Virus record (IMG/VR): IMGVR_UViG_3300045988_175328
Location: 1 to 64,000 of that record
Strand: one strand, 5' to 3'
DNA: 64,000 bases
From: a virus
In this document: piece after piece, positions 3,121 to 51,622 of the stretch
Layout: each line of letters begins with the position of its first letter
Numbering within the stretch: the stretch's first letter is position 1
Translations under genes and position numbers: made by a program
The notes under the pieces: model-generated
Told to the model about the DNA's origin: nothing
What the model saw: only the letters and a program-made list of their open reading frames with translations
Database searches by the model: none

Positions 3121-3611
3121 TGAAATGTCAAAATAATACTTACGATTTTAATCGCGAGATTTATTTTGGCAAACTAGTAAGGATGTTGGGAAACTAGCAT
3201 CTAGTGGCGGATTAAATCCGTCCAACGAAGACACTGAATTGCTGGAAACTCCTAAAGCTCAGAGTGCCAAGCCCCATAAAGGGTTAGGCTACGAAAGTAG
3301 AAACAAACTTTGAGATGGTATATGGTTAAATCCTAAGTACTCTAACAATGGACAATCAGCAGCGAAGCCGGTAGAACTATTTACTAGTACCGGAACGTTC
3401 AACGACTATTCCTCGTGAGGGAAGTACACTACAAGTAATTGGTAGTGGAAGTGGTGTCGCCTAAGTAGTATAGATTTATACTATATGGATAAGATATAGT
3501 CTGTGCCTTGGTGAAAGTCAAGGGTGCGGGTAGTGCCGCCGGTTAGAAAGTAGCGTTTCTAACTGAACGATCATCCTCTCGAATCGTCTTAAACGGTTCT
3601 ATATACTATAC
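3121..3611 (+). ncRNA. group I intron ribozyme core (5' part of the clpX element)
   Basis: P-like AATTGCTGGAAACT 3237-3250, Q-like CAATCAGCAGCG 3353-3364, R-like GTTCAACGACTAT 3397-3409, S-like AAGATATAGTC 3491-3501. These resemble the classical Tetrahymena and phage group I consensus elements. Confidence 0.8.
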
Positions 3612-3770
3612 AAAAACAGCCTACTTTGCTATAATAGTTTTATAAAAACTATTTAGGAAAGGAGGTTTGTCTCAATGATAAGAGCTATTAAACTAAGAGC
3701 TTATTTTACAAAGCATCAAGAAGAGCTAGTTGATAAAAATTTCAACTGTGTATGATTTATCTTTAACTAT

Positions 3771-4766
3771 ATGCTAGATTTAAAATCTAAGCTCTATAAA
3801 AGAACTGGTAAAAATCTTAGTTATAACGAAGCTTGTGCTATTTTAACTAAGCTTAAGTCTAGAAGACCTTGGCTAAAAGAAGATGATGCAGTTGCATTGC
3901 AACAAGTTATCAGAGATTTATTCAGTTCTTATGAAAGATTTTTTAATGGGGCTGGATACCCTAAGTTTAAAAGCTCTCGAGACAAACAATCCTATCGTAC
4001 TAATGTATATTCTTTAGATATTGAGAATAGTACAATTAAAATTCCTAAAGTAGGAGTTGTGAAATTTCGTGACAAATACAAATTTGAAGGTTTAATTCGA
4101 GTTCGAAATGTCACGATTTCAAGATCTAAATCTGGTAAATATTTTGCATCAGTCTGTATCGAAGTAGAAACCACACCTCTTGCGAAAACCAAGAAGAGTT
4201 GTGGTATCGATCTCGGGATAAAAGATTTATGCATATTATCAGATGGAACTAAGTTTGAGAATCCTAGATTTAGAACTTTGCCAGCTGCTAAACGTAGATT
4301 AAGATTTTTGCACAAAGCTTTGTCGCGTAAGGAGAAAGGATCTAAAAGCTGGGAAAGAGCTAGAATCAGACTCGCTAGAGAGTATGAACGTCTAGCTAAC
4401 ATACACTTAGATTATCTTCACAAGCTGACTACTTGGATCATTCAGAATTATGATTTTATATCAGTTGAAACCTTAAAGGTTAAGAACATGCTGAAGAATC
4501 GTAAATTAGCAAGAGCTATTAGCGATGCTGGTTGGTTTGAACTAGTTCGACAATTAGAGTATAAAGCAAATTGGTATGGCAAGCAGTTTGTTAAGATAAG
4601 TACATTTTACGCTTCTAGTCAAATCTGCTCTAGCTGTGGAGATAGAAATTCAGCCGTGAAAAAACTTTCTATTCGCGAATGGGAATGTCCTAGTTGCGGA
4701 GCTTATCATGATCGTGATTTGAACGCAGCGATTAACATTCTGAACGAAGGATTAAAACAAATATAA
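3771..4766 (+). CDS. tnpB: TnpB-like RNA-guided endonuclease (RuvC + zinc ribbon); N-terminus disturbed by an in-frame TGA
   Basis: Ruv[11 protein letters not shown], Ruv[14 protein letters not shown], zinc ribbon CSSCG...CPSCG, Ruv[16 protein letters not shown] stronger start (ATG 3675 behind AAAGGAGG) encodes MIRAIKLRAYFTKHQEELVDKNFNCV in the same frame, but is cut off by TGA at 3753-3755. Confidence 0.85.
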
Positions 4767-4911
4767 ATTTTGTACAGTATATAGAACCGCAGGACATGCG
4801 GGGATAGCCCATGGTATCTGATTTGTCAATGGAAATTGAAACTATGAAGGAGTAAATTCTAAACAATCTTGAATGGGAACCTCGTCACTTATTAGTGAGG
4901 GAGGATGTCAG
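4767..4911 (+). ncRNA. candidate TnpB omega RNA scaffold / right end; also the 3' terminal part of the intron
   Basis: Non-coding tail after tnpB with hairpins CCGCA-GGACA-TGCGG and CCTCgTCACT-TATT-AGTGAgGAGG, ending exactly at the 3' splice site. The 5' limit is uncertain and may lie inside the tnpB 3' end, as in known TnpB omega RNAs. Confidence 0.45.
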
Positions 4912-5082
4912 AATAGGGGTACCGGTGCTCGTGGATTACGAAGTATTGTAAGCTCTATTTTTGACCGAAAAGTCTTCGATATTAATAGCAGAACTAAAGT
5001 CGTTAAAATCACGAAACAGGATATTTTAGAATTATATGCGAAACAATTGGAGGACAGAGACAATGAAACAACAATCATTTGA
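4912..5082 (+). CDS. clpX: ClpX-like unfoldase, exon 2 (sensor-2 / C-terminal helices)
   Basis: NRGTGARGLRSIVSSIFDRKVFDI matches the conserved ClpX TGARGLRSI region. The frame is open only from 4873 and has no independent RBS. Confidence 0.8.
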   Translation, partial: NRGTGARGLRSIVSSIFDRKVFDINSRTKVVKITKQDILELYAKQLEDRDNETTII

Positions 5083-5869
5083 GTTAATCCACCGATATCT
5101 TAATCAATTAGAATCAGCTGAAACTATTACGCCAGAAGATATTGGCGCTATTTCAACGATTCTAGCAATTGAAAAAGAATACGGTGAGTTAACTGAATCT
5201 AAACCAAAACGGAAAACGAAAAAGAAAACTGAAACCGTAAAAGAAGTTGTCGAAGAAATTAAGGAAGAGCTTCCGAAAGAAGAAGAGAAAACTCAAGAAG
5301 TTCCTCAAGAAGAAATAACTCTAGAAGAAGTAAAAGAAGAGACTTCTGTTCAAGGACCAGAATCTATCGATACTCCTACTGAAGTTGAAGAATCTAAGGT
5401 TGAAGAGGTTCCGGCTGAAGAACCTACGAATTTCGATAACTTAACGAAAGATCCAGAAGAAACATTAACTCGTTTTAATGAAGATTATTTTGTTTCTAAA
5501 TACAAAAAAAATACGAAACGAGAAGATTTAACCGACGAGGAATTTGAAGAAGTTAAATTCTTAGCCGAAACCTTAAAACGTTATGCGAGCGAAGGCTCAG
5601 ATAACGTTAAAGAAATCAAGCAAGCTTTCGAAGAAATCCTCGAAGATGAAGATAAAGGTAAAGTAACTTTAAAAGAGATTACTCCATACTATCTTGAACA
5701 TCTTGTTAAGTACATTACAGTTAAGCAAAGTCTTAATAAATTTAAAGAAGAAGACATTGTTGCCACTTTAAAAGATATTTCTGGCGGCATGTTAAATTCT
5801 ATTACTGACCTTAATAGATATAATATTGAGGCAGTATCTAATATCTTAGAAGGAACTCTTAAAAATTAA
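5063..5869 (+). CDS. hypothetical acidic (Glu-rich) protein
   Basis: ORF with TTGGAGGA RBS before ATG 5063 (the track start 5036 is less likely). Long E/K/T-rich low-complexity centre. Confidence 0.6.
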   Translation: MKQQSFELIHRYLNQLESAETITPEDIGAISTILAIEKEYGELTESKPKRKTKKKTETVKEVVEEIKEELPKEEEKTQEVPQEEITLEEVKEETSVQGPESIDTPTEVEESKVEEVPAEEPTNFDNLTKDPEETLTRFNEDYFVSKYKKNTKREDLTDEEFEEVKFLAETLKRYASEGSDNVKEIKQAFEEILEDEDKGKVTLKEITPYYLEHLVKYITVKQSLNKFKEEDIVATLKDISGGMLNSITDLNRYNIEAVSNILEGTLKN

Positions 5870-5924
5870 GAGCCTTTTATACAATTATTAAATTTTTATT
5901 TTTTACAAAAAGGAGACATTTATT

Positions 5925-6341
5925 ATGTTAAACAAAGTTATTTTCCACGGCAAAATGCCATTATCTGAAAAATTCGTTATCGACTATCGCCCAGGCGAAG
6001 AAGGCGGCAAACGTTCTATGTTCCGCGCAGCTATCGACGTACAACGCGATTATAAAGCGAAAGACGAAAAATATTATCCATCCGATATTTTTAATTTTAC
6101 AGCTTGGGGCCCAACAGCAGATTTCTTACATAAACATGCTGGTCCTGGTACTGAACTTGTATTATGTTGCCGAGCAACTAACGATACATATGAAAAAGAT
6201 GGCAAAATGGTTCGTTCTGTAGGATTTACAGTAGAAACTGCCGATATCGTATGGGCTACTGCTAAATCTGACGGTGAACAACCAGCAGCAGGAGCTAAAG
6301 CAACTGAAGCTACAGGCGATGATTTCGATTTAGGCATCTAA
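5925..6341 (+). CDS. ssb: single-stranded DNA-binding protein (OB fold, acidic C-terminal tip)
   Basis: MLNKVIFHGKM start, FNFTAWGPTADFL and VGFTVETADIVW resemble bacterial SSB strands. Gly/Ala-rich tail ends in DDFDLGI. AAAGGAGA RBS. Confidence 0.7.
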   Translation: MLNKVIFHGKMPLSEKFVIDYRPGEEGGKRSMFRAAIDVQRDYKAKDEKYYPSDIFNFTAWGPTADFLHKHAGPGTELVLCCRATNDTYEKDGKMVRSVGFTVETADIVWATAKSDGEQPAAGAKATEATGDDFDLGI

Positions 6342-6350
6342 ATAAGGATT

Positions 6351-6390
6351 TTGGTACCGGCAGAAATGTCGGTACCAAATTTACTTTTTG
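6351..6390 (+). terminator. rho-independent terminator
   Basis: TTGGTACCG / CGGTACCAA 9-bp stem followed by a T-rich tract. Confidence 0.75.
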
Positions 6391-6567
6391 CTGAAAAAAT
6401 GTTAAACTTAATATGACAGATTTTTTAAGAAAGGAGGAACTCCGATCGACTACGTTGAGAATATTGACTCACAGATAGCCGCCTTTGAAAAAGATTTCAA
6501 AGAAGAAGAAAGTCTTGAGTCTGATCTAAAAGATATAGCAGAATATACTGCTAAAAAGATTATTACA

Positions 6568-6837
6568 ATGAAACCCGACGAGATGTTTAAGCTCGATTAT
6601 GACGATAAAATCTTTGGATTTTTATTTAATAAACGAGACGCACATTCGTATCGAGTTATCATGGTAGTAGCTTCAAAAATTCTCATCGCTAAGCCGCGTC
6701 GGTTTTCTGCTATCGTAGAAACAGATCATAAATTAAGTTTAGAAGAAACAATTCGTTTTCAGATTAAAGCACTTCTATACAATTATTATGACTTATACGA
6801 TGAAGAAAACGGCGTTGCCTATGACGATGAGGAATAA
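6568..6837 (+). CDS. hypothetical protein (true start possibly upstream)
   Basis: 89-aa ORF. The frame is open from 6430 behind a strong AAAGGAGG, but no ATG/GTG/TTG lies in frame there. Confidence 0.5.
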   Translation: MKPDEMFKLDYDDKIFGFLFNKRDAHSYRVIMVVASKILIAKPRRFSAIVETDHKLSLEETIRFQIKALLYNYYDLYDEENGVAYDDEE

Positions 6838-6872
6838 GATTGTATTTAATAATTCAGAACTAGGTGTAACAA

Positions 6873-7769
6873 ATGGCCGTAAGAGAACAAAATCCAGACG
6901 AGAAATATTTAGCGCTTGTTAGTGCTGTATTAAATTTTGGCAACTTAACGCATAACCGTACAGGTATTGATACCTATAGCAAGAATCATCAAATTTTAAC
7001 ATTTGATTTAGAAGATAAGTTTCCAATTCTAACATCTAAATTTGTTGGATTTAAAACAGCTCTTAAAGAATTGTTTTGGATATGGCAAGAGCAATCAAAT
7101 AACGTAGAAGTTCTACGTAATAAGTATGGCGTAACGATATGGGATGAATGGGAACTTCCCGATCATACCATTGGAAAAGCCTATGGATATCAGCTAAGTA
7201 AACTATATAAATACAAAAATGTCGACTTAGATAAAGTAATTGAATTATATCGTCAAAATAAAATTAAAAGTTTTATCGATAATGGCGACACAGTTTCTAT
7301 GACACAAGTCGATAAATTAATTTACGACTTATCTTTTAATCAAGAAAGTCGTCGTATGGTAGTTTCTCTATGGAATGTTGAGGACTTACATGAAATGTCA
7401 CTTGAACCCTGTGCATTCCAAACGTTATGGTCTGTCAGAGAAAAACGACTAGACTGTATGTTAATCATTCGTAGTAATGATTTAGGACTTGGATGTCCAT
7501 ATAATATGTGCCAATATGCAGCATTAGTTCATATGCTGGCACATGTATCAAACTTACAACCTGGATTTCTAACTATTGCAATTAATAATGCACACGTGTA
7601 TGTAAATCATATCGATGCATTAAAACAACAACTTAGTAATGAAATCCATTATTCTCCTAGATTAATAATTGATCCAAATGTTAAATCTTTCTATGAGTTT
7701 AATACCGATAACATTCAACTTGAAGGATATAAGCATTCTGGTAAGATAGAAATGGAAGTAGCAATATAA
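6873..7769 (+). CDS. thyA: thymidylate synthase family protein (ThyA or related dNMP hydroxymethylase)
   Basis: HNRTGIDTYS, catalytic Cys context LEPCAFQTLW, RSNDLGLGCPYNMCQYAALVHMLA. All are ThyA-fold signatures. Confidence 0.75.
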   Translation: MAVREQNPDEKYLALVSAVLNFGNLTHNRTGIDTYSKNHQILTFDLEDKFPILTSKFVGFKTALKELFWIWQEQSNNVEVLRNKYGVTIWDEWELPDHTIGKAYGYQLSKLYKYKNVDLDKVIELYRQNKIKSFIDNGDTVSMTQVDKLIYDLSFNQESRRMVVSLWNVEDLHEMSLEPCAFQTLWSVREKRLDCMLIIRSNDLGLGCPYNMCQYAALVHMLAHVSNLQPGFLTIAINNAHVYVNHIDALKQQLSNEIHYSPRLIIDPNVKSFYEFNTDNIQLEGYKHSGKIEMEVAI

Positions 7770-8350
7770 TGAATAACGAATTTAATATTTCAGGCATTTT
7801 AAGAGATGTTAAAGTAAATCATGAACAACAAAATGGAGTAGTTATCTATTCTGGTGTTGTTGATTCTAAAATCAGAGGCAAGGAATATCATATTCCAGTG
7901 CGTTTCCAAGAGAACGTAAAAGAGATTTACAAACTTAAAGAAGGTTTAAAAGTAAATCTTACAGGAGAATTACGAACTCAAAAGAAAAAAGAAGATAAAC
8001 ATTTATCTTTAGTTCCGTATTTTTATGTAATGCAATCTCGTCCACATAAAACAGACTATAATTATGGTCGTTTAGTCGGTAAAGTATGTAAACGCTTCCC
8101 AGTCATCAAACGCAAAGACCATAATATCTGTTCTTTAATTGTGGCAGTACAGCGTCATAACTCAGAACAGTATGATTATATTCCAGTTGTAGGTCATAAC
8201 CTTACAGCTAATTTATTTTCGACATTAAGTATCGGTTCTACAATTGTAGTTAGCGGTACTTTTAAACAACGTAAGTATCACGAGAAAAAAACTGGTGATA
8301 CTAAATATACATACGAAGTTAATGTCGATAAGTTTAGTATTAAACTGTAA
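7769..8350 (+). CDS. hypothetical protein
   Basis: 193-aa ORF, start overlapping the upstream stop (ATAATG). Confidence 0.55.
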   Translation: MNNEFNISGILRDVKVNHEQQNGVVIYSGVVDSKIRGKEYHIPVRFQENVKEIYKLKEGLKVNLTGELRTQKKKEDKHLSLVPYFYVMQSRPHKTDYNYGRLVGKVCKRFPVIKRKDHNICSLIVAVQRHNSEQYDYIPVVGHNLTANLFSTLSIGSTIVVSGTFKQRKYHEKKTGDTKYTYEVNVDKFSIKL

Positions 8351-8356
8351 GTTAAT

Positions 8357-8385
8357 AGCCCTTCCTGATGGAGGGCTTTAATTTT
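8357..8385 (+). terminator. rho-independent terminator
   Basis: AGCCCTTCC / GGAGGGCT stem with a TGAT loop, then TTTAATTTT. Confidence 0.65.
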
Positions 8386-8389
8386 AACT

Positions 8390-9148
8390 ATGATTAATAT
8401 AAACAGACCATTGTATCAATTAAATGGTACAAAGATAAAACAAGTTGTATCGATAAGCCGACTCGATTTTAAAATGACTCAAGATAAAATGGTGTTTTAT
8501 ACCGAGACAGAGAATCTGTTTAATATTGAGCCCGATATTGACTATCTCTTTATGCAAAAAGATGGAAAATATACAGTATGGTCTGGCGTCGAACTTGTTA
8601 AATTTGAAACAAAAAAGATATCGAATGAAGAATCTATTCTTGTAATACCTTTACACAAACGAGACATCACTTTGTTTACCAATAAAGATCGATATCATCG
8701 ATTTGTTTTCGAAGAAGATTTCAAAAAGAAAAATACTTTGAAAGAAAAACGATCGAATATGCGATTAGACTGGGATGAATTTATTAGTTATGGTTTCTCG
8801 ACTTTTACAAAGAAAGGCGAGTATACTAACATAGTTGTCATTAATACGCGTAATCGTGTAAAAATAGTGAGTAATCTTCCTGAACAAGAAATCAAGCGTG
8901 TATCTGATACGTTTAAGTCGAGAAAATTCTTTAAGAATAGATTTACACATATTAATTATGTGTTTGCGTTCGATCAAAATAATATGGCAGTATTAACAGT
9001 CGATTACATCGATATTATTCTTGAAGCGAATAAACTTCCAGATTTGTATTTTAAGCCTAACTATATGGCCGACGGCAATATAATGAAAGAATTGAAATAT
9101 GCAAATCAAATATCGACCAAAGAAATTGTGAAAGGAGGCGTGTACTAA
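8390..9148 (+). CDS. hypothetical protein
   Basis: 252-aa ORF in the co-directional series. Confidence 0.55.
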   Translation: MININRPLYQLNGTKIKQVVSISRLDFKMTQDKMVFYTETENLFNIEPDIDYLFMQKDGKYTVWSGVELVKFETKKISNEESILVIPLHKRDITLFTNKDRYHRFVFEEDFKKKNTLKEKRSNMRLDWDEFISYGFSTFTKKGEYTNIVVINTRNRVKIVSNLPEQEIKRVSDTFKSRKFFKNRFTHINYVFAFDQNNMAVLTVDYIDIILEANKLPDLYFKPNYMADGNIMKELKYANQISTKEIVKGGVY

Positions 9149-9456
9149 TGACTGATGAAGAAATTATGCAAAGTTTAGTTTCATATATCGGAATGCTATC
9201 TTTACAATCTAAAGATACGCCGACGAATTTAAATAAAAGAATTATTGCAAATTTTATGTCTGTAATTCTTAATTTACTTGAAGCCGAAGGCGTTAATAAA
9301 GAAGAAGCTATCAAACCTTTGTATCCAGTAATCGTAAACTATTTAATCGAAAAGAATAATGTATTCAAAGAAGCTTCTGGTAAAGATAGTGAAACGTATA
9401 TCAATGCAATTAAGCTATTAAAGTCATTGGCAAAGAAAGAAGGTACGAATGGCTAG
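9148..9456 (+). CDS. hypothetical protein
   Basis: 102-aa ORF with an ATG overlapping the previous stop. Confidence 0.5.
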   Translation: MTDEEIMQSLVSYIGMLSLQSKDTPTNLNKRIIANFMSVILNLLEAEGVNKEEAIKPLYPVIVNYLIEKNNVFKEASGKDSETYINAIKLLKSLAKKEGTNG

Positions 9457-9709
9457 GAAGAAAGCTGTTGTTGTCGAAGAAGTATCGCATACGCTAACCG
9501 ACGAAGAAAAACGCAAACGAATCGATACGATTGCTTCGACAATCATGCAAAAGTCAAATATCGTCATCGGGCGATTAAGTGACGAAAAAGTCAAAGAAAA
9601 ACTTAAGATTGAATTCATCCCGACTCCGTCCGTTAATTTTAATGCAGCAACTGGAGGAGGGTTTCCAAAAGGAAAGATGACAATCTTATCAGGAACAGAA
9701 GATTCGGGT
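9449..9709 (+). CDS. recA: RecA-like recombinase, exon 1 (ends inside Walker A)
   Basis: ...GGGFPKGKMTILSGTEDSG then the frame dies. Joining to 9978 restores GTEDSGKTSL (Walker A GxxxxGKT). Confidence 0.8.
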
Positions 9710-9977
9710 AAGGTATTAAATTGCCCCTATAACTAGTAATAGTTAATAGAAAACTCTGTGATATGCTGGGAAACCGTCTAGGCAATCAGCAGGCAGCGTA
9801 CGTTTAATGTATTGCGCCCCAACGACTATCGAACACAGAATCTAATAAATGTTTTAGAGGATAAGTTAGTAGAGTACATTCGTTACGAATGGAAGCGCAG
9901 AGCATCTCATAACAAGGCTTGAGATGATGATATAGTCTAGTCCCCTAATAAATATCGGGAAACCGAGGGTGTTAACG
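9710..9977 (+). ncRNA. group I intron (ORF-less), recA intron 1
   Basis: Exon ends GGGU and pairs with GCCC at 9723-9726 (P1). P 9763-9775 ATGCTGGGAAACC, Q 9783-9793 CAATCAGCAGG, R 9817-9830 CCCCAACGACTATC, S 9929-9937 GATATAGTC. Last base is G (9977). Confidence 0.8.
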
Positions 9978-10288
9978 AAAACTTCATTAGTTCTTGAAAC
10001 AATTGGTAAATTGCATCGTGAAAATCCAGAAGGACATTTTGCCTTATGGATTGAAAGCGAAGCATCATTATCATTAGATTATTTAATTAACACATTCGGA
10101 ATTGATCCAGAGCGATTCTACTATATTCAGTACGATCGTGAACATGCAGCTGAAGATTGTTTAAATCAAGCCGAGGCTATTATTAATTCTGGTGTTATCG
10201 ATATCTTCTGTATTAATACTTTAAAAGCTCTTGTGCCTAAAAGCGAGATCCTTAAAAGTATGGAAGATGTTAGCGTGGCCTCCGGGTT
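9978..10288 (+). CDS. recA: RecA-like recombinase, exon 2 (3' limit uncertain, 10288-10304)
   Basis: KTSLVLETIGKL...ALWIESEASL...VIDIFCINTLKALVPKSEILKSMEDVSVASG is collinear with RecA GKTTLAL...IDAEHALD...[24 protein letters not shown]. Confidence 0.75.
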
Positions 10289-10656
10289 TTGGAAGGCATA
10301 TTGCGGTGACGCAGTGTGAAAACTTAGTAAATTGCTGGAATATCTTAATAATTTGTTAGCTACAACAGAATCTGTAAAGATAAATGTGAATGCAGTCGAA
10401 AGACAGAAAAAATAACAAATTTGTTGCAAGCTGAAAAAAAGCTTTTTTTAAAGTGCTAAACAACATTAACAATAGACAATCAGCAGCGAAGCCGACAAAG
10501 ATTTGTTGTCGGAACGTTCAGAGACTATCCTATAGCCACACGCTAAAATATAAATATGGCAACAGGAGTAGGGCCACTATGTGGTTGGTGAGATCCCATT
10601 AAATCGAAAAACTAAGCATCTTTTTTAAGATGATGATATAGTCCAAATCAGGCTTG
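10289..10656 (+). ncRNA. group I intron (ORF-less), recA intron 2 (boundaries +/- ~10 nt)
   Basis: P 10329-10341 AAATTGCTGGAAT, Q 10477-10488 CAATCAGCAGCG, R 10516-10530 GTTCAGAGACTATCC, S 10635-10644 GATATAGTCC. In-frame stops on both sides. Confidence 0.75.
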
Positions 10657-11266
10657 ATATTGCCAAGCCCGTCTTAATGCGACTTTTTGCCGGAAGTTCA
10701 TTCCATTAATCGATGAATTTAAAACAGCAATGATCTGCATCCAACATATGACAACCAATATTGGTTCTTTCAGTATGTATGGAGATAATTTAACATTAGC
10801 CGGTGGCAAAGCTATCCGAACAGCAGTAATGCTATGGGTAGACTTACGCAAAGGCTCGATTCTCGATACCGATCCAATTAAACGAGAAGAGGGTATTAAA
10901 GTAAACTGTACTGTACGGAAGAATCACTGTATTCCAGCTGAATTCCCATATCGTAAGTTTAGCTATTATGCCGTTTTCGGTCAAGGTATCGAACAAATTT
11001 TAAGTACTCTCGATGAGCTAGTAACTCAAGGAGTAATTAATAAAGCCGGTGCATGGCTTCAAGAAATTGATTACGAGACTGGTGAGATTCTCGACAAATG
11101 GAATGGTAAGAATGCCTTTCGTCAAGATATGCTAGATCATCCTGAAAAATTAAAACGATATATTGGTTTAATTCAAGGAACCTTTACTCAATTAACTAGC
11201 GAAGAAGTCGCTAAGTTAAAAGAAGAAGAGGCAAAAGGTGTAGAAGATGAACTCGAAGAAGAATAA
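10657..11266 (+). CDS. recA: RecA-like recombinase, exon 3
   Basis: (Y)CQARLNATFCRKF...ICIQHMTTNIGSFSMYGDNLTLAGGKAIRTAVMLWVDLRK is collinear with RecA LQARLMSQALRKL...IFINQ...[24 protein letters not shown]. Confidence 0.8.
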
Positions 11267-13573: not shown

Positions 13574-13588
13574 CAAAGGACTTTAATA

Positions 13589-18799: not shown

Positions 18800-20701
18800 T
18801 TGAATTACCTGGAATCGCTAAATCCACAGCAATTTGAGGTTGCTAAAATAATTAAAGGTAAACGTATCGTTAATGCAGCTGCCGGTAGCGGAAAAACAAG
18901 TACTGTTGTGTCTAATGTAAGATATACAATAGATAGCGGAGTTGATCCTTCTAATATCTTAATGTTTACCTTTACACGAAAAGCAGCACTAGAAATGAAA
19001 GAACGGCTCAAAAAAGCAATTGGACCTTTAGCTAAGAAGGTAACAATTGGCACTTATCACTCTTTTGCCTGCACTGTCATTAGAAGATTCATCTCGCTTA
19101 CTCCATATGCTAGTAATTTTACTATCATTAGTCCTGACGATATGTTAACTATCGTTAAAGAAATTAGTGGAGTTAAAGATGATATTGCAAATTTAGATTT
19201 CTTACGATTCATCGAAGAAGTAAAATCTAATTTCTTATCGCCAGATGAATTACTTCGACATGAAGAGTATAAAAATAAAACTAAAAATATTATCATTTAT
19301 CGAGAATATCAACGGCGATTAGTTTCTGAAAATACAATGGATTTTAATGATCTTTTATTTCAGTTGCATATTTTAATGAAAGATCAAGGTGTTCTTGATT
19401 ATCTTCACAGTCAATATAAATATATTTGGGTAGATGAGATGCAGGACAGTTCTCGTAAAGATCTAGAATTAATTTTTAATTTAATGGGCAACAACGAAAA
19501 TGTTTGCGGAGTCATGGATAATAATCAGTCTATTTATAAATTCCGCGGCGCAGAAATCGATAAAGTTATCTTGATGCTTAAGAAAAATAACTTTAAAGAA
19601 TATCAGCTAGAACGTAATTATCGAAGCACACAAACTATTGTTAATGCAAGTAATAGCGTTATTGACAGAAACCCAATGCTCGTTAAAAAAAATGCATATA
19701 GTGCTGGTGAAATTGGCACAAAGGTACAGATTAAGCAACTCTTTGGTCAGCAAGAAGAATCAGAATTTATCTTAAAAACTATTTTATCCCTACAGCAAAA
19801 AAATGTAGCTTTACATGAAATAGCAATACTCGCAAGAACTAAAGGTGAACTTAGCCGTATCGAAAAACTGTTTTTAAGTAATTCTATTCCTCACACTCTA
19901 TATTCTGGATTAGCATTTATGGAGCGAGCTGAAATTAAAAATATTTTATCCTTTTTGAGATTTTTATATAATCCAAAAGATGAAACAGCATTCGCTAGAA
20001 TTGTTAATATTCCAAGATCTAGAATCGGAGAGAAGTCTGTTGCTAAAATATTAGCGCTAAAAGATAATGGAGATTATGTCGATATTGTCGATTGTGTTCG
20101 TAAGAATTTAAATTCTTTTAAAGGTGCGACTAAAAATGGACTACAAACTTTTTTAGAAAGATTTGATCTACTCAAATTGTATGCTGAAGAGAATGTGTTA
20201 CCAGCGGCTATTGTCGATAAATACATTGAGGTCTTTAAATATAAAGACTTTATTAAAACCGAATACAAGGAAATTGAAGATTGGTCTTTTAGACTTAATA
20301 ATGTTACAGTTTTTGAAAATATTGCTTCTAATTACTATACTTTAGAAGAATTCTTAACTGGTATTATTGAAGCTATTCCATCTTCTGAAAAACTTGAAGA
20401 TGCTGGCGTTACTTTGATGACAGTCCATGCATCTAAAGGGTTAGAATTTAGAGTAGTTCTTATTATGGGCGCTTCTGAAGGACTGTTTCCACATGCCATG
20501 TCGATGGATACTATTGAAGATATTCATGAAGAACGAAGACTTTGGTATGTAGCTATGACAAGAGCTAAGGAATTGCTTTTAATTACAAGCCCTAAAACAA
20601 GTATTTCAGCTGGTACAATTAAATTTCACAATGTAAGTCGTTTTGTTAATGAAATAGACGGTCAATATAAATTGTTCTATCCATATGCTAAAAAGTCGTA
20701 A
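18800..20701 (+). CDS. UvrD/PcrA/Rep-family SF1 DNA helicase
   Basis: NAAAGSGKTS (motif I), FTFTRKAALEM, VDEMQDS (II), RNYRST, MTVHASKGLEF, RRLWYVAMTRAK. Confidence 0.9.
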   Translation: MNYLESLNPQQFEVAKIIKGKRIVNAAAGSGKTSTVVSNVRYTIDSGVDPSNILMFTFTRKAALEMKERLKKAIGPLAKKVTIGTYHSFACTVIRRFISLTPYASNFTIISPDDMLTIVKEISGVKDDIANLDFLRFIEEVKSNFLSPDELLRHEEYKNKTKNIIIYREYQRRLVSENTMDFNDLLFQLHILMKDQGVLDYLHSQYKYIWVDEMQDSSRKDLELIFNLMGNNENVCGVMDNNQSIYKFRGAEIDKVILMLKKNNFKEYQLERNYRSTQTIVNASNSVIDRNPMLVKKNAYSAGEIGTKVQIKQLFGQQEESEFILKTILSLQQKNVALHEIAILARTKGELSRIEKLFLSNSIPHTLYSGLAFMERAEIKNILSFLRFLYNPKDETAFARIVNIPRSRIGEKSVAKILALKDNGDYVDIVDCVRKNLNSFKGATKNGLQTFLERFDLLKLYAEENVLPAAIVDKYIEVFKYKDFIKTEYKEIEDWSFRLNNVTVFENIASNYYTLEEFLTGIIEAIPSSEKLEDAGVTLMTVHASKGLEFRVVLIMGASEGLFPHAMSMDTIEDIHEERRLWYVAMTRAKELLLITSPKTSISAGTIKFHNVSRFVNEIDGQYKLFYPYAKKS

Positions 20702-36679: not shown

Positions 36680-36753
36680 GCTTTCGTAGTTCAGTGGGAG
36701 AACAGCAGCATGTCACTGATCAGTCGCTGGTTCGAATCCAGCCGGAAGCACCA
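36680..36753 (+). tRNA. tRNA-like gene with encoded CCA; anticodon arm irregular (GUC/Asp or UGU/Thr reading)
   Basis: Acceptor GCTTTCG / CGGAAGC. D arm GTTC-AGTGGGA-GAAC. T arm GCTGG-TTCGAAT-CCAGC. 3' ACCA. The anticodon stem pairs poorly in the standard register. Confidence 0.6.
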
Positions 36754-43601: not shown

Positions 43602-43608
43602 TAGTATG

Positions 43609-43779: not shown

Positions 43780-43792
43780 AGAAAGGAAAGGC

Positions 43793-45045: not shown

Positions 45046-45504
45046 ATGGCTAAAAACTTTAGAGGATTTGAAGTAATTAAGGAATATAAAGATAAACCTA
45101 TTGTAATGCCAGAACGAAAAACATTAAAAAGTGCAGGCTATGATATTTCTTCAGCTGAAACATATATATTAGAGCCTAAAACTTGTTACTTGATTCCGAC
45201 AGGATTAAAAGCATATATGTTAGATAATGAATTTTTATCATTATACATTCGTTCCAGTATGGCTATTAAACATAATTTGTCTTTAACAAATTCCGTAGCG
45301 ATTATCGATTCTGACTATTACAATAATCCAAATAATGAAGGCCACATTATGATTGGTATTCGAAATAATTCTGAAGAGCCATTTTTACTTGAAAAAGGTA
45401 CTCGTATTGCTCAGGGTGTATTCATGAGCTATGGTATTATTGATGGCGATAAAGCATATCGAACTAGAGTCGGTGGAATTGGTAGTACAGGTCTAGGTAA
45501 ATGA
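45046..45504 (+). CDS. dut: dUTP diphosphatase (trimeric dUTPase)
   Basis: KSAGYDI, AIIDSDYYNNPNNEGHI, RIAQGV, RVGGIGSTG. Confidence 0.9.
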   Translation: MAKNFRGFEVIKEYKDKPIVMPERKTLKSAGYDISSAETYILEPKTCYLIPTGLKAYMLDNEFLSLYIRSSMAIKHNLSLTNSVAIIDSDYYNNPNNEGHIMIGIRNNSEEPFLLEKGTRIAQGVFMSYGIIDGDKAYRTRVGGIGSTGLGK

Positions 45505-45674
45505 GGTACGATCCATTTACCGAAGTAATTTTGTTCACTATCTGTGCTTTAATTTTACTTCTCGGCCATGCTATTATAATGAAATTTCAATATATAAGAA
45601 CAGCATTCGCAGTCATATTTTTTCAGACTGCGATTTGTTTTTATTTAATATTTAATTATTTTAAGAAAGGATAA
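45501..45674 (+). CDS. small two-helix membrane protein (57 aa; below the ORF-track cut-off)
   Basis: ATG overlaps the dut stop (ATGA). Two hydrophobic segments, VILFTICALILLLG and FAVIFFQTAICFYLIF. Confidence 0.4.
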   Translation: MRYDPFTEVILFTICALILLLGHAIIMKFQYIRTAFAVIFFQTAICFYLIFNYFKKG

Positions 45675-45677
45675 TAA

Positions 45678-45860
45678 ATGACAGAGCTTTTATTAATTAA
45701 AATTTTAGTTCTTATCTCATTTGCATTTTTAGCATATAAGATTACGTATCGTATCATTAAATATGTGACAAATATAAAAGAACACCCTAAATTAGATGCG
45801 GCTGTTGTCTCCGGCATCTTATCTTTATTTTTCTATGATTTGTTTTTGAGATTTATTTAG
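45678..45860 (+). CDS. small membrane protein
   Basis: 60 aa with hydrophobic segments LLLIKILVLISFAFLAY and VVSGILSLFFYDLF. Confidence 0.5.
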   Translation: MTELLLIKILVLISFAFLAYKITYRIIKYVTNIKEHPKLDAAVVSGILSLFFYDLFLRFI

Positions 45861-46496
45861 ATGGTTACTAAACTACAAACATTCTGTAAAATTGCAGTAG
45901 AGGACTATCAAGATTTAAATATGTATAAATTAAATCTTGTCCTCTATTTCGCAGATAAACTCTATCGATTTAAATATAGCGAGCCATTTTTTGACGAAGA
46001 ATTTTTAATTGACGAAGAAATGGGTCCGTATCTAGAATCTGTAAAAGATGCATACGAAACATATTCTTTATTTAATATCCCACTATTCGGAGCTTTAAAT
46101 ATTTTTGATGAATCTGATCTTGCAATGGTCGATAAAGATAATAAGTTTGTCGACGATGAGAAAGATCGAGATCATGATGTCGTTGTCGATGAATATGGGA
46201 CTATTCTCGATATTAAGTTTGAAAATAAAAAAGAGCAAGATATTTATGACTTTATTAAGGCTACACTTGAGCCATTAGATTTTACTGGTGTTCTGTATCT
46301 TTATGAATCCTCCAAAGATAAAGAAGAAGAGTTTAATCTATTTTTAGCATCTAAATTTGCAGCATATCAAAAATGGGTTAAAGACGGTAAACCTGAACCA
46401 GATAAAACGAAACCTATTAAAGAAAACGTAATGCATGAAGCTGAGATTTCAGTCGATGATATCGCAGAACGAATATCTCGCCGTAAAAAAATGTAA
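45861..46496 (+). CDS. DUF4065 (Panacea/SocA-like) domain protein (tentative)
   Basis: MYKLNLVLYFADKLYRFKYSEPFFDEEF...GPYLESV resembles the family pattern KL.KLLYFA......G.P.F.E.F.AW..GPV. Confidence 0.35.
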   Translation: MVTKLQTFCKIAVEDYQDLNMYKLNLVLYFADKLYRFKYSEPFFDEEFLIDEEMGPYLESVKDAYETYSLFNIPLFGALNIFDESDLAMVDKDNKFVDDEKDRDHDVVVDEYGTILDIKFENKKEQDIYDFIKATLEPLDFTGVLYLYESSKDKEEEFNLFLASKFAAYQKWVKDGKPEPDKTKPIKENVMHEAEISVDDIAERISRRKKM

Positions 46497-46520
46497 TATA
46501 GTGCCTCAGGAGGCTTGATA

Positions 46521-47198
46521 ATGAATGAATTAAAAACAGAATCTTACGACAAAGATTTAGCTGAACAATTAGACTCATTCGTTGAACAATACAACTCTTG
46601 GGGCTATACAGACCGCGGCAAACAAATATACAATAAAGCAATGCATATGCTAAATACAGATCATGCTATGTATGCTAGACTGCCAATTATTTGCAAGGGC
46701 GAAAATTGTATTTATAAAAACGATCCGCTTCATAAACATAGTGTTGTCCAAGTAGGAGAACCGTGTATTTGTGAAACGACAATGATCGCACAGAAATATG
46801 CCCAGTATAAAGAAGAATTTGACCTTGATAACGCTTCTTATACTGATAAAGTATTAGTTCATGAATTAATTACGCTAGATCTTTTGATTTCTCGTTCGCT
46901 TCAATATATTAATAATAAAGATTACTTACCAGTAATCGATGTTGTTACTAATGTAACAGAAACGGGCGAAGAAATTGTACAACCAATGGTTTCAAAAGGT
47001 ATCGAATTATATTCATCTCTCGTTAAAAAGCGAGATGATGTATTTAGCTTGCTTGTTTCGACACGTAAAGATAAACTTAAAAATAATATTGATACAAATG
47101 ACCATGACGTATATTTAATTAATCAGTTAAGTAACGATGATTTCTTTGTTACAGAAGCTGATATTCAAAAAGAGAAAGAGAGCGTGCTTAGTCGATGA
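46521..47198 (+). CDS. hypothetical protein (position compatible with a small terminase; unproven)
   Basis: AGGAGG RBS 7 nt before ATG 46521. First gene of the late cluster. No motif recognised. Confidence 0.5.
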   Translation: MNELKTESYDKDLAEQLDSFVEQYNSWGYTDRGKQIYNKAMHMLNTDHAMYARLPIICKGENCIYKNDPLHKHSVVQVGEPCICETTMIAQKYAQYKEEFDLDNASYTDKVLVHELITLDLLISRSLQYINNKDYLPVIDVVTNVTETGEEIVQPMVSKGIELYSSLVKKRDDVFSLLVSTRKDKLKNNIDTNDHDVYLINQLSNDDFFVTEADIQKEKESVLSR

Positions 47199-47713
47199 TA
47201 CAAAATTTTTTTAAAGGTTTTGCAAAAGGCATTGACAACATTAATAAAGTAGTTAGTGCTACTAGTGTAATGAATAAAGGATTCAGAACAGCTTCTGAGA
47301 GCATTGCAAAAAAAATTAAAAGCCAAGGAATGATTGAAGGCGCTTTGAATCCATTACACAATATTGCCCAAGGTGGTTTTGGTTATCGTGCTACCGGCAA
47401 ATATGCTGATGCATATAAATTAGCATATGCAGATCAACAAACAGTTGGCAAGGTAATGGATTTAATGCAAGACACAGGCGCCTATAAAGGTAAAGGTTAT
47501 CATGCCGCATTACAAGCTGGTGAAGGACATGCTGGTTATGAAGAAGCTAGAGCAGCTTATGATGCCATCATGAAAGATGCCAAACTTGATAGGACCAGAA
47601 TGATCACGCATGGTGTCATTGGTGCCGGAACAGGATATCGATTGCTTTCTGGTGGAGGCGTATATCGAGATCATAATGGCCAAGTAAATATTCCAGTAGT
47701 TCCGGGTATTTAA
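47195..47713 (+). CDS. hypothetical protein (Gly/Ala-rich)
   Basis: 172-aa ORF. Confidence 0.5.
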   Translation: MIQNFFKGFAKGIDNINKVVSATSVMNKGFRTASESIAKKIKSQGMIEGALNPLHNIAQGGFGYRATGKYADAYKLAYADQQTVGKVMDLMQDTGAYKGKGYHAALQAGEGHAGYEEARAAYDAIMKDAKLDRTRMITHGVIGAGTGYRLLSGGGVYRDHNGQVNIPVVPGI

Positions 47714-47716
47714 TCA

Positions 47717-48940
47717 ATGGCTAAAAAAAATAAAAAGAATAAAGAAAGATATATTCCAAAAGAAGAAAGAAGACTAGCTCAAGAAGCTGTAGAAAATAAC
47801 TTCAGAGAAAGTCTGTCAAAAGGATTTAAACCTAATTTTGAAGAAATTCCTAAACCTAAAATTGCAGATAATTTTAAAGAATTAGCTGATTATGCAAAAA
47901 CTCCGTCTCCTTATTATGCATATAAGAAAGATGGAGGGATAATTAAAGCCAGAAAAGAAAACTCTTTAAATTTAGGCAGTGTTCGTGTTAATAAAAACTC
48001 AGAAACTTATCTTCGTAACGAAAAAGGCAATTTTAAATTTAAATTTGGCAAACAACATATTCCATCGGAAGAAGAAGTTTCTTCTAAAATATCTTTAATT
48101 GCAGATAAGCCAGTAATTGACTATGATGATATAGGCCATCATAAAAAAGATTTACAATCTAATCAAAAAGAGCCGTTAAGTAAAGTAAAAAATGATACTA
48201 TGCCAAAAGGCATGCCTTCTCGTGAAGAATATACTTACAATAGAGGGAGTCATGCTCCGGAGTATGTAAATAAATCTGTAAAAACATCAAATACAGTTTA
48301 TCCAGATCCAAACTTTCCTCCGATGGGGCCAAATCCTGCACCAGAAATTTCTCAATTAGAAAGTAATATTTCTAATACAAAAAAATCTTCAAGTCCTCAA
48401 AAATCTAGACGAGAAAGAATAAGAGATAATATTCATTCAACAGTTGATACTGTTAAAGATAAAACTGGCGCAGCTATTGATACAGTAAGAAATAAAACTA
48501 ACACAGCTGTTGATGCAGTAAAAGATAAAGCAGATATAGCCATTAGTGCTGTAAAAGAAAAATCTGAAGTTGCTGTTAATGCTACAAAAAAAGGTATTAA
48601 TGCTACCGATAAATTTTTATCAAAAAGTCCAGACTTAATTAAAATAAACAAAGAAAGTCCTGATATTTTTGGCGGGAAATTTAGATTAACTAAAGCTGGC
48701 GCTTTAGGAGCAGTTGTGGCTGGTTCATTATTTGCTGTCAAAGATTTTGCAGAATCTTATCAAAGAGAGCCTGCATCTGCAGGTTCAGCTACACCTTTAA
48801 TTTCATCTCCTGTTGTTAATGCTATTCAGTCATCATCTTCGGGATTGACTCCTAAAAATGCATTAGATAATATGAGCGCTAGTGGTGATTTAAATTTTGC
48901 ATTACGAGAACGCAACCGAATAGCTCCTGGTCAGCTTTAA
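47717..48940 (+). CDS. hypothetical protein with five tandem 11-residue repeats
   Basis: 407-aa ORF. Repeats TVDTVKDKTGA / AIDTVRNKTNT / AVDAVKDKADI / AISAVKEKSEV / AVNATKKGINA are encoded at 48440-48604. Confidence 0.55.
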   Translation: MAKKNKKNKERYIPKEERRLAQEAVENNFRESLSKGFKPNFEEIPKPKIADNFKELADYAKTPSPYYAYKKDGGIIKARKENSLNLGSVRVNKNSETYLRNEKGNFKFKFGKQHIPSEEEVSSKISLIADKPVIDYDDIGHHKKDLQSNQKEPLSKVKNDTMPKGMPSREEYTYNRGSHAPEYVNKSVKTSNTVYPDPNFPPMGPNPAPEISQLESNISNTKKSSSPQKSRRERIRDNIHSTVDTVKDKTGAAIDTVRNKTNTAVDAVKDKADIAISAVKEKSEVAVNATKKGINATDKFLSKSPDLIKINKESPDIFGGKFRLTKAGALGAVVAGSLFAVKDFAESYQREPASAGSATPLISSPVVNAIQSSSSGLTPKNALDNMSASGDLNFALRERNRIAPGQL

Positions 48941-48955
48941 AAAAGGATTTAAATA

Positions 48956-49444
48956 ATGGGAATTTTTACAGGCGCAGCCAATATAGCTAAAAAAGCATTT
49001 GCAAAAGGGTCTGGCTTAAAAGACAAGGCCTTTGCTCCAGGTCAAAACATTTTCACCAAAAGTAATCTTCTTGGTGCCGGTGTTTCTGGATATTTTGCTA
49101 AAGATGCTTACGATACAGCTATTGAATCTGGAGAAGGACAAGCTAAAGGATTAAGAGATGCGACTTTTCAATTAGGAACTGATTTATTTTTAGGTCCAGC
49201 TTTAGGTACTGCTGTTTACATGGCAGCAGGATTACCTTCGGCACTTGCATCAGCATCTTCAGAGCTTGCACAACAAGGTCGATTTTTATCGCAACAATCC
49301 TATCGGCCATTTCAATTTAGTCGTCCAGTTAATTCTGGACAATATGCAACGATGCGACAAGCCGGAATGGCGCTCGCAAAACAATCACAATATTCTATGC
49401 AACAAGCCTTAATGGGATCTGAGGCAAAGAATTTTCATAGGTAA
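48956..49444 (+). CDS. hypothetical Gly/Ala-rich (possibly membrane) protein
   Basis: 162-aa ORF. Confidence 0.5.
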   Translation: MGIFTGAANIAKKAFAKGSGLKDKAFAPGQNIFTKSNLLGAGVSGYFAKDAYDTAIESGEGQAKGLRDATFQLGTDLFLGPALGTAVYMAAGLPSALASASSELAQQGRFLSQQSYRPFQFSRPVNSGQYATMRQAGMALAKQSQYSMQQALMGSEAKNFHR

Positions 49445-49453
49445 TAATGATTA

Positions 49454-50575
49454 ATGAATTACAATAATATAACTCCAGAAATGGTTATGTCTATGGATTT
49501 ACAAGAGCTCGTAAAACTTGATTACGCTAAGCTTCCTGAAAAGTCAAAGCTTGCGGTAATTAAAAAAGACCCAGTTATGTGGGCTAAAGCTTTTATTTCT
49601 TCTTATTCAATTGAGCAAGAAGAATATGTTCCATGGACAGCCAGATGGTATCAAGCTGAAATGCTTAGAGATAGGAGTTTACGTAAAGTATATCGATGTG
49701 GTCGTCGGTGTATTGCCGGCGATACATTAATATATGATCCTGAAACTAATAGCTCTATTTCAGCTAAAGAATTGTTCGATACCCGACAGGATGATTTCTT
49801 TACAGTGGCTTGCTTGGATCATGATTTCAAAACAGAGCAGATGCCTCTAGCTAAAATATATGAAAATGGTGTAAAACAAGTATATACAATAACGACAGAA
49901 TACGATAAACAAATTACTGTTACAGAAAATCATCCATTCTTAACACAAGTAGGATGGAAAGAATTAAAACATCTTCGTGTTGGAAATTTAATTGCAGTCA
50001 TTCAAGACGAAGGTATTTTATCAAAGTATGTCGATATCGACAAACAAACAATTGAATTAATACAAAAAGAATTAAATAAAGAAGTAAGTATCGAAAGTTA
50101 TTCAGATCTAATGCTTTATGCAGAAGAGGCTGGACTTGAAACAGTTTACGATATTCTTGATGGCGATTTGGCATGGGAACGAATTAAATCAATTCGATTA
50201 CGTGGCACAGAAATGACATATGATGTGTCCGTACCAGAATATCATAATTTTATTGCGAATGGATTTATCACTCACAATACTGGTAAAACAGAAACAATGG
50301 TTATCGAAGCATTGTACAATTGTTTCACTCGAGATAACTTTGTTCATATGTTTGTAACGCCATACGAAAACCAAGTTCGATTAATTTTCGATAATTTAAA
50401 ATCTAAGATCGATTCCTCGCCAAGGATTCGAACAGCACTCACTCGGTCGACACGGTCGCCGTACGTGATGGAATTTAACAATAAATCAAAAATTGTTGGA
50501 TTTACAACGGGCGCAAGTTCTGGTAGTAGTGCTGCCTCTATCCGCGGATGGCGTAGTGACTGGATCTCACTCGAT
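49454..50575 (+). CDS. terL: terminase large subunit, exon 1 (contains the intein)
   Basis: After intein removal, YRCGRR|TGKTE gives Walker A GRRTGKT. Ends in the Walker B strand IRGWRSDWISLD. Confidence 0.85.
49709..50278 (+). mobile_element. mini-intein (190 aa) inserted in the TerL P-loop
   Basis: Starts CIAGDTLI (block A), TENH (block B-like TxxH), ends FITHN followed by +1 Thr. Too short for a LAGLIDADG or HNH endonuclease domain. Confidence 0.85.
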
Positions 50576-51250
50576 TAAATAATACTATTGTAATAGTTTA
50601 AATAGTCCATTTATTTGGTAACAAGTAAATGTTGAGTTAAATCTCAAGAGTCTATCTAATTGCTGGGAACCCCTAAAGCTTAAAGTGCCTTTGGGCTGCG
50701 AAAGCAGAAATAAATCTTTAAGATGATATATGGTTAAATCCTAAGTATTGTAAACAATGGGCAATCAGCAGCCAAGTTAGTATTATAATTAATATTAAAA
50801 GGTTCAACGACTATCCTGAGAAGGAGTACTATGTAAGCGCATAGGAAATGGTAGAAATCCTACAAAGGATTAAGATATAGTCTATGCTTTATCGAAAGAT
50901 AAAGGTGCGAGTAATGTCGCCGGCTAGAATTAGCGAATCTAGTTGAATTAATATCAGGAAATGGATAATTAAATAATAGTTCATTTAAAACGCCGTTAAA
51001 CAACGAAACTCCTAAGAAGGACAACGATGTACCAAGCTCATTAGTTAATAATGAGTAGTGTTCAACGACTAGGGATGAAATAAGCTCCCCACGAAAGCGG
51101 TGAAACCTACTACAGTCTTATCGTCAAGTTTTATTCTGTAGTACGGAAGACATAGTCTAAACTGGACCAGAACTGACTGGTCGATGAAAATGAAGGTAAC
51201 TTCCAGAGCGCAAGATAAAGAGCTTGCGGTTAATAACAAATTGTATCTAG
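50576..51250 (+). ncRNA. group I intron, terL intron A (boundaries +/- 3 nt), with a second degenerate core in its 3' half
   Basis: P 50658-50670, Q 50761-50773, R 50802-50816, S 50872-50882. The core aligns closely with the clpX intron. A second R-like GTTCAACGACTAG lies at 51060-51072 and a second S-like AAGACATAGTC at 51147-51157. Confidence 0.75.
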
Positions 51251-51379
51251 GTGAAGGTGATTTCGACACAGTATATGCTCTTTGTATGGAACGTGCTAGT
51301 ATCGGAATGACATGTTCATCGACACCAACCGGTAGACGATCTAAGTTTTATGACATTTGTACTCAGAAGAGCCTCGGGT
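51251..51379 (+). CDS. terL: terminase large subunit, exon 2
   Basis: (E)GDFDTVYALCMERASIGMTCSSTPTGRRSKFYDICTQKSLG is collinear with the T4 gp17 region ...ISSGRRSKIIITTTPNGLNHFYDIW. Confidence 0.75.
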
Positions 51380-51622
51380 TAAAAATGGCCCCAATATTAA
51401 GCAATTAATGATTGAAAACCTTTTGAAATGCTGGGACTTCCTTTAAGGAAAATCAGCAGCGAAGCTTCTTAAATTTAAGAAGAACGTTCAACGACTATCC
51501 CATTTGGGAGTAGGGTCAAGCGACTCGAAGCAGAAGGCGTCCTATTGGGACGAAGATATAGTCTGAGCTACATAGAGATATGTAGAAGGTTGCAAGTAGC
51601 GAATGCAATCGTAACAATACTG
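51380..51622 (+). ncRNA. group I intron (ORF-less), terL intron B
   Basis: Exon ends CGGGU and pairs with GCCC at 51388-51391. P 51425-51436, Q 51448-51460, R 51485-51499, S 51553-51563. Last base is G (51622). The splice gives KSLG-F-KEHY, cf. T4 GKSGFEPY. Confidence 0.8.

Follow-up and report, generated by a model that had tools for sequence, protein, structure and literature searches.

Phage genes with several introns and small internal exons have been described before (PMC11878797), as have phage-borne IStrons (PMC4227781), and the locus reported here is a new and unusually dense example of these known kinds of element. It lies in a viral DNA stretch of 64,000 nucleotides (positions 1 to 64,000 of IMG/VR virus record IMGVR_UViG_3300045988_175328; hereafter the window), in which group I introns interrupt clpX once, recA twice (recA-1 and recA-2) and terL four times (terL-A, terL-6, terL-B and terL-7, in this order). 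We consider it probable that group I introns from the general phage pool have repeatedly and independently invaded clpX, recA and terL at the DNA level and have also been lost from them.

Group A IStrons (CdISt1 type; Tourasse et al., 2014; PMC4227781) are by definition inserted after TTGAT, ATTAT or TTTAT and have the 3' terminus TCAG (PMC4227781; PMC13565253). As at the present locus, they have a group I ribozyme in the 5' part and an IS200/IS605 OrfB (TnpB) in the 3' part, follow a T-rich pentanucleotide ending in AT, end in TCAG, make no target duplication and have copies in unrelated protein-coding genes. Unlike these elements of bacterial chromosomes, those of the window sit in a large lytic-type phage genome, their tnpB is probably a pseudogene and terL-A is without the insertion-sequence (IS) part; IStrons previously reported from phages (phage c-st and D-1873) belong to group B (PMC4227781). 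The multi-intron genes of the Herelleviridae (Twort orf142, Brochothrix A9 terL and Bastillevirinae pol and terL; PMC11878797) resemble the window in having several group I introns per essential gene, with terL favoured, small internal exons, related introns at neighbouring sites and a mixture of versions with and without open reading frames (ORFs). The window phage is, however, unrelated to them in DNA (a megablast match of 55 nucleotides only), and its terL differs in having four introns plus an intein, a 9-nucleotide exon and introns of different lineages. The td, nrdB and sunY introns of phage T4 are subgroup IA2 introns that home through endonucleases. They are like the window introns in occupying conserved host genes, in being polymorphic among related phages and in having co-conversion-like tracts in the flanking exons, but the phage and the host genes are different ones and no endonuclease gene is left in any window intron.

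The window matches a stretch of the ENA contig ERZ27276323 k141_26322 (227,241 bp; metagenomic phage) at 100% identity, and many relatives with ∼95% identity were found on metagenomic contigs of 220–229 kb. There are also more distant relatives with 64–70% RecA identity, and L141 is a relative with ∼68% TerL identity; L015 and L142 are two loci of one relative genome (ERZ28634252 scaffold_31). When the window was compared with the INPHARED phage set by megablast, no relative came up; the sole match was the 55-nucleotide stretch at the 3' end of recA-1. A tblastn search of the phage set with RecA gave at most 32% identity, and a RecA-based search of IMG/VR for related loci returned none.

Introns were located with the Rfam covariance model RF00028 (gathering score 50 bits) and with a second, more permissive scan, and their boundaries were set by comparison with homologous proteins and with alleles of relatives that have no intron. 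Five matches lie above the gathering score: 3139–3523 (clpX, 74.4 bits), 9700–9959 (recA-1, 60.5 bits), 10272–10666 (recA-2, 55.5 bits), 50605–50904 (terL-A, 86 bits) and 51370–51585 (terL-B, 91.4 bits). The permissive scan gave a sixth core slightly under the threshold at 50939–51180 (terL-6; 46.2 bits, E = 1.4e-8) and a seventh, weak one at 52110–52346 (terL-7; 25.8 bits), which is probably a divergent group I intron. An earlier sequence-only reading had listed five cores in clpX, recA and terL; all five are real group I introns (Rfam 55–91 bits), but terL-6 and terL-7 had been missed. The elements of clpX, recA and terL placed below are all on the plus strand. The clpX intervening sequence extends over 3121–4911 (1791 nucleotides; after GCTTAT, 3' end GTCAG). 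In recA, recA-1 occupies 9710–9977 (268 nucleotides) within the Walker A codons DSG/KT (a slash marks the insertion point), with a P1 of GGGU/AA and UUGCCC, and recA-2 occupies 10283–10662 (380 nucleotides; after C, junction VAS/QARL). The terL introns are terL-A at 50576–50957 (382 nucleotides; after CTCGAT, 3' end ATCAG), terL-6 at 50967–51243 (277 nucleotides; ending in AACAAATTG), terL-B at 51380–51622 (243 nucleotides; P1 of GGGU/UA and UGGCCC) and terL-7 at 52120–52382 (263 nucleotides; after GGT and again ending in AACAAATTG). The five that are not of IStron type (recA-1, recA-2, terL-6, terL-B and terL-7) are ordinary introns without ORFs.

All seven introns end in G, and the 5' exon ends in U at six of the seven sites, the exception being recA-2 (C); U before the 5' splice site is near-universal in group I introns. 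The recA-2 junction (TC/C, Ser) is fixed by the 389-residue intron-less allele P0366, and after C the P1 helix would hold a C–G pair or need a bulge. The spliced RecA has 389 residues, one of which differs from P0366, and the spliced ClpX has 399, equal in length to the intron-less alleles of relatives such as P0403. The spliced TerL, an open frame like the other two, has 780 residues including the intein and aligns with homologues across every junction; removal of terL-B gives QKSLG-F-KEHYHP, matching homologues, and removal of terL-7, which fills a real gap in the terL frame, restores IDRGAG/EYQIE. We read clpX, recA and terL as intact genes in this phage lineage, not as fragments, and the introns would splice out of the transcripts so that the host genes stay functional.

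A search of relatives for presence/absence polymorphism, as the sequence-only reading had proposed, found it at most sites and in various combinations. In recA all four combinations of the two introns (both, either one, neither) occur in the population; recA-1 is precisely absent from L003 and from P0366, and the recA-2 of L003 carries an inserted ORF. In terL, both terL-A and terL-B are missing from L004 and L015 and terL-A is missing from L005, terL-7 is precisely absent from L015, and terL-6 is present in L004 and L015 and absent from L141. Most relatives are without the clpX IStron. Rfam did not re-detect terL-6 or terL-7 in L004 and L005 despite 95% identity to the window, which is probably a filter effect. 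The terL-6 of L004 has a 290-residue ORF, the last ∼28 codons of which are kept in the window copy. This ORF had no Pfam, PHROG or PDB match; it contains putative LAGLIDADG-like strings.

The exons next to the introns also differ from the empty sites. Immediately ahead of the insertion point, three of four empty sites have C (GGC, GAC and GGC) where the window has T, while the terL-B empty site ends in T and differs more (ACTGATCGCAACTTAAAT/TTC versus ACTCAGAAGAGCCTCGGGT/TT in the window). There are 14–15 mismatches in the first 30 nucleotides upstream of terL-B (background about 1–2 per 30 nucleotides) and seven in the first 30 nucleotides downstream of recA-1 (background about 2 per 30 nucleotides). 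Exchange at the DNA level, in which an intron moves along with its flanks, is expected to leave such clusters of mismatches beside the sites; reverse splicing into a resident site that matches the guide beforehand is not. We propose that introns would be gained and lost as DNA when phages co-infect, either through repair of a break triggered by an endonuclease or by TnpB or through plain homologous recombination between intron-plus and intron-minus alleles; the IStron lineage could additionally use target-specific insertion of the IS200/IS605 type. After transcription each intron would self-splice out, and the host gene product would be preserved.

Alternatively, all seven introns may have been ancestral to the species complex and then precisely lost in differing combinations, with the window keeping the full set. 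Several introns are indeed common in the population, as judged from a 95-residue recA exon-1 fragment on many of the 220–229 kb contigs and from terL exon-1 forms of 374 and 379 residues that are both frequent, and the terL-B flank of the window looks ancestral in comparison with L141. We nevertheless consider a common ancestral set unlikely. The clpX IStron is on six contigs, against many with an intron-less ClpX of 399 residues; recA is uninterrupted in the more distant relatives (64–70% RecA identity); in L141 the terL-A site is occupied by a different intron and the terL-6 and terL-B sites are empty; and IStron copies at different sites are 86–91% identical, compared with a genome background of ∼95%. 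Whatever the direction of change, the lineages differ, so that their ultimate origins would be separate.

Repeated invasion also has to be set against the proposal of the sequence-only reading, in which a single intron family multiplied within this genome and recA-1 and terL-B are linked by reverse splicing into a guide-matching site. We regard this as very improbable: on alignment and phylogeny, the test that the reading itself had named, the window cores resemble unrelated phage introns as closely as they resemble one another. Its argument began from shared motifs. AATCAGCAG and GATATAGTC do occur in all five cores, exactly five times each and only there (0.5–0.7 expected), but GTTCA(A/G)(C/A)GACTAT is found in four of the five, recA-1 having CCCCAACGACTAT. 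The shared core motifs are generic: they resemble the Rfam consensus (AAuCCGCAGC, GUUCAaAGACUA and AAGAUAUAGUCu), and the exact pair AATCAGCAG..GTTCAACGACTAT was found in at least 120 unrelated IMG/VR contigs. Sharing conserved core motifs is, by itself, poor evidence that the introns of one genome are related.

From these contigs, 107 outside cores were extracted, among the matches listed, and aligned using MAFFT with the five window cores (112 cores, 211 well-occupied columns); trees were built by neighbour-joining with bootstraps. Nine of the ten window pairs have 48–59% identity and mutual ranks of 16–110 of 111, and only clpX and terL-A are closer (67% on shared columns, mutual rank 6–8 of 111). 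The BLAST scores follow the same pattern: terL-B has a best outside match of 151 bits and at most 45 bits within the window, recA-1 has 78–134 bits outside and 44 within, recA-2 has 74 outside and ∼54 within, and clpX and terL-A reach 212 and 179 bits outside compared with 138 bits to each other. The best outside match of every intron thus beats its matches in the window, except for clpX and terL-A when compared with INPHARED, an exception that is gone against IMG/VR. The seven introns are best assigned to at least four lineages.

The likeness in P1 between recA-1 and terL-B is nevertheless real, and it speaks for one family, together with the clear homology of clpX and terL-A. Both introns follow TCGGGT and have GCCCC 13–20 nucleotides downstream, as had been noted from the sequence, although only GCCC pairs with the exon GGGU and the fifth C faces a C. 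Their 5' regions are 72% identical over 54 nucleotides, and a GGGT..GCCC P1 is found in just three of the 107 outside introns (1.3% expected by chance). Their cores, however, are only 53% identical, with mutual ranks of 53–102 of 111, and closer kin are found outside. The 5' and 3' modules of recA-1 are 85–96% identical to Herelleviridae terL introns; the List-36/A511-type intron at the Walker A site of Listeria phage terL shares with it the flank GGGT, the guide GCCCC, the P3 strand GAAAACTCTGT and 94–96% identity over the last ∼55 nucleotides (the List-36 intron starts GGGT/TAAAATTAGCCCC), and both lie within P-loop glycine codons. The host gene differs, as does the P4–P6 core (UGCUGG and CAGCAG in recA-1, ACGGGCA and CCCGUGC in the Listeria intron), which suggests, beside the shared ends, that recA-1 is a mosaic intron. 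For terL-B the best match is the IMG/VR locus L085, which starts ACGGGT/TAAATTTAGCCCC and carries GCCCC (151 bits, versus 44 bits for recA-1). We infer that recA-1 and terL-B owe the TCGGGT and GCCC match to a P1 type that came down from a widespread intron lineage, and not to copying of one into the other's site. Reverse splicing to a second matching site is likewise unsupported, as the empty sites in the intron-less alleles of ∼95%-identical relatives, TCCGGC in recA and TTAAAT in terL, cannot pair with GCCC, which argues against a pre-existing matching site. A recent intragenomic copy should, moreover, be near-identical, whereas the copies are 53–67% alike against a background of ∼95%.

What stands of the proposed proliferation is that clpX and terL-A belong to one specific lineage, that of the IStrons; neither a family of five nor sister copies were recovered. 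The long stretches said to align between them do so (74% over 175 nucleotides and 77% over 82 nucleotides; global alignment z = 33), and the particular stretches quoted are conserved across the clade, including in the IMG/VR loci L058, L086 and L115. The two fall together in a clade of at most ten members in 49 of 60 bootstraps and were sisters in none of 160, whereas clpX paired with its L015 counterpart in 100 of 100.

By its sequence, the clpX element is a complete group A IStron and a close fit to the definition. It comprises the group I ribozyme module (3121–3575; P1 to P9.2 plus a UGAAC motif), a tnpB (IS605 OrfB) of 363 codons (3675–4766) and a right end (4767–4911) that, from its position, is presumed to be the omega-RNA scaffold; the latter is 81–84% conserved in the L015 copy and has the identical terminal sequence GGAGGATGTCAG. 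The tnpB product matches the Pfam families OrfB_IS605 (2e-24), Cas12f1-like TNB (9e-26) and HTH_OrfB_IS605 (4e-10). Codon 27 (nucleotides 3753–3755) is an in-frame TGA where the intact L015 copy has CGG, and the window tnpB is probably a pseudogene. Recoding of TGA was considered and ruled out as the reason for this stop, since code 11 leaves every other ORF intact and the L015 codon is CGG. The same stop is also present in contigs L006, L008 and L010. A hairpin 10–20 nucleotides from the 5' end of the IStron is conserved with compensating changes (CTTACGATTTTAATCGCGAG, CTCGTGATTTTAATCATGAG and ACTATTGTAATAGT) and is a candidate for the subterminal palindrome that TnpA recognises in group A IStrons. 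A 5.2-kb contig (L009; 4100–5238) matches the window at 99.5% identity as far as position 3570, and its copy of the ribozyme has compensating changes in P9, P9.1 and P9.2; beyond the ribozyme an unrelated sequence with a 108-residue ORF replaces tnpB; either an exchange of cargo or a chimeric assembly could account for this. A TnpB search of GTDB genomes found distant TnpBs alone (31–37% identity) and gave no host clue.

TerL-A is, on the same kind of evidence, a group A IStron-type ribozyme without the IS part. It shares with clpX an extended P5 with GAUGGUAUAUGGUUAAAUCCUAAGUA, the P9–P9.2 helices with a GUAGCG loop and the UGAA motif, past which it runs straight to ...ATCAG; it has no ORF and so lacks the TnpB of group A IStrons. 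ORF-less IStrons can result from excision of the IS part (PMC4227781). Two further copies, each with the ribozyme in the 5' part as in the clpX element, are in the ERZ28634252 scaffold_31 genome, where clpX itself is intron-less (empty site GCATAT/AATAGAGG in L142). That at L015 (2680–4460) is complete, 84% identical to the clpX element over 1.8 kb and encodes an intact TnpB of 363 residues; it follows TTTAT inside a 69-residue ORF, and the equivalent site in the window (43912/43913) is empty. That at L142 (11746–13628) follows TTTAT inside an 89-residue ORF, at a site equivalent to window position 6626, and has a different TnpB of 416 residues. The targets and ends are CTTAT/...GTCAG for clpX, TCGAT/...ATCAG for terL-A, TTTAT/...GTCAG for L015 and TTTAT/...TTCAG for L142, CTTAT and TCGAT being near, not exact, matches to the three published pentamers. 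No target-site duplication was found in any IStron copy on comparison with exactly joined empty sites (window 43912/43913 with L015, window 6626 with L142 and the L142 clpX with the window). The group A lineage thus occupies several genes across the phage population: clpX, terL and the 69- and 89-residue ORFs. An alignment of nine clade members has changes on both sides of 41 of the 81 predicted pairs and non-canonical pairing in 15 of 729 cells; one member, L115, has two TnpB genes. The type of target splits the clade. The ribozymes of clpX, L015, L142 and L086 pair (C/U)UUAU with UAGUAAG, while terL-A, L058a and L115 pair GAU with UAGUC and share their 5' region, which argues that terL-A was not copied from the resident clpX element. 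GUUGAG was rejected as the terL-A guide, as the clade alignment shows it in a local hairpin.

A further possibility, that the clpX IStron transposed within this genome and then lost its IS part by deletion to give terL-A, is the least credible of the explanations: the two do share their clade, the extended P5, the P9–P9.2 architecture and the TCAG end, and IS excision is a known route to ORF-less forms (PMC4227781), but at 67% identity on shared columns they are never sisters, they group apart by guide and target (UAGUC and GAT against UAGUAAG and TTAT or TTTAT), and terL-A, being absent from the ∼95%-identical relatives, would have been either gained recently or lost from them recently, although its divergence from the clpX copy is high.

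Several observations weigh against repeated invasion from the phage pool. At terL-B the window flank QKSLGF resembles that of the distant homologue L141 (QKELGF), while intron-less relatives have DRNLNF, so that at this site loss or replacement in the relatives is as likely as gain in the window. No window intron holds a homing endonuclease gene and tnpB is broken; a tblastn search for tnpA within the 64 kb found no tnpA-like sequence, which is a weak test. The GGGT and GCCC P1 is present in two of the five window introns against three of the 107 outside, more than independent draws predict. The outside sample was itself selected by the core motif, from ∼120 contigs among the matches listed, the MAFFT alignment of the variable loops is imperfect and the support for the exact clade is low (19/100). 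Splicing and mobility are both predicted from sequence.

Within the preferred account of repeated gain and loss, we tentatively suggest, as a possibility that we hold to be less probable than not, that the IStron lineage is actively mobile within the 220–229 kb phage species, moving between essential and small genes (clpX, terL and the 69- and 89-residue ORFs) and homing by means of TnpB, which would be guided by RNA to cut the empty sites of co-infecting relatives. The predicted TnpB/omega-RNA cleavage target is TTAT followed by AATAGGGGTACCGGTG. If this were true, TnpB would be a phage-against-phage homing nuclease, and terL-A, which lies 9 nucleotides from another intron, would be a stranded ORF-less relic of IStron homing.

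The terL gene is a multi-site intron hotspot in this phage group. Exon 1 (49454–50575) contains an intein of 190 residues (49709–50278; CIAGD...FITHN; Pfam Intein_splicing, E = 2e-22) within the Walker A region (GRR/C...N/TGKT), so that terL bears four introns and one intein in all; the L141 counterpart of the exon-1 product is larger (516 residues). Between terL-A and terL-6, two group I introns of different lineages, is a mini-exon of 9 nucleotides (50958–50966; GAAATGGAT, E-M-D), which is uninterrupted in relatives (P0358 and L004 read ...WISLDEMD... unbroken, and homologues have LDExDY). It holds the Walker B glutamate, and skipping of the mini-exon would remove this catalytic residue. Three other exon structures were rejected: a splice between the TGACTGG repeats at 50560 and 51166 is in frame but deletes the Walker B LDE, and starts of exon 2 at EGDF and of exon 3 at HYHP are ruled out by the proteins of the relatives. 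The end of exon 1 (50560–50575, TGACTGGATCTCACTCGAT) recurs as TGACTGGTCGAT in the P9 region of terL-6 (51166–51177), which could be chance, an exon remnant or an alternative pairing. TerL-6 and terL-7 show no significant overall likeness (z = 2.5) and have a 3' module of ∼35 nucleotides in common (51209–51243 and 52349–52382); it forms a hairpin with compensating changes (CGCAAG..CTTGCG and CTACAAG..CTTGTAG, respectively) followed by the identical tail ATAACAAATTG, and a similar tail is present in the IMG/VR locus L094. In L141, a different compact group I intron (4760–4995) lies exactly at the terL-A site (CTGGAT/), and a further intron (5570–5791) follows VDWD at a site that is unoccupied in the window.

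Elsewhere in the window, a 1.58-kb insertion at 57918–59498, absent from L004 and L015, holds an IscB-like ORF (58232–59470) in which RRXRR and HNH domains were recognised; a weak HEARO RNA match (57984–58209; 27.7 bits) lies ahead of this ORF. The insertion is probably an IscB element of the IS200/IS605 family between two structural genes. There is a tRNA gene at 36680–36750 (Rfam 47.4 bits). A sub-threshold match to Rfam RF03531 at 20501–20596 (41.9 bits, E = 0.0018) lies within the ORF at 18800–20701; RF03531 is a Clostridioides difficile small RNA located within a helicase gene, and the match may hint at the host or be conserved coding sequence.

In its 64 kb the window thus combines seven group I introns from several lineages with an intein, an IscB element and an IStron, and almost every one of these elements is present in some ∼95%-identical genomes and missing from others; the locus is a compact natural record of selfish elements accumulating in conserved phage genes. 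The species complex, which public metagenomes sample well, offers a system in which to measure natural intron gain, loss and co-conversion, and it could be used to test homing of TnpB-bearing IStrons between co-infecting phages.

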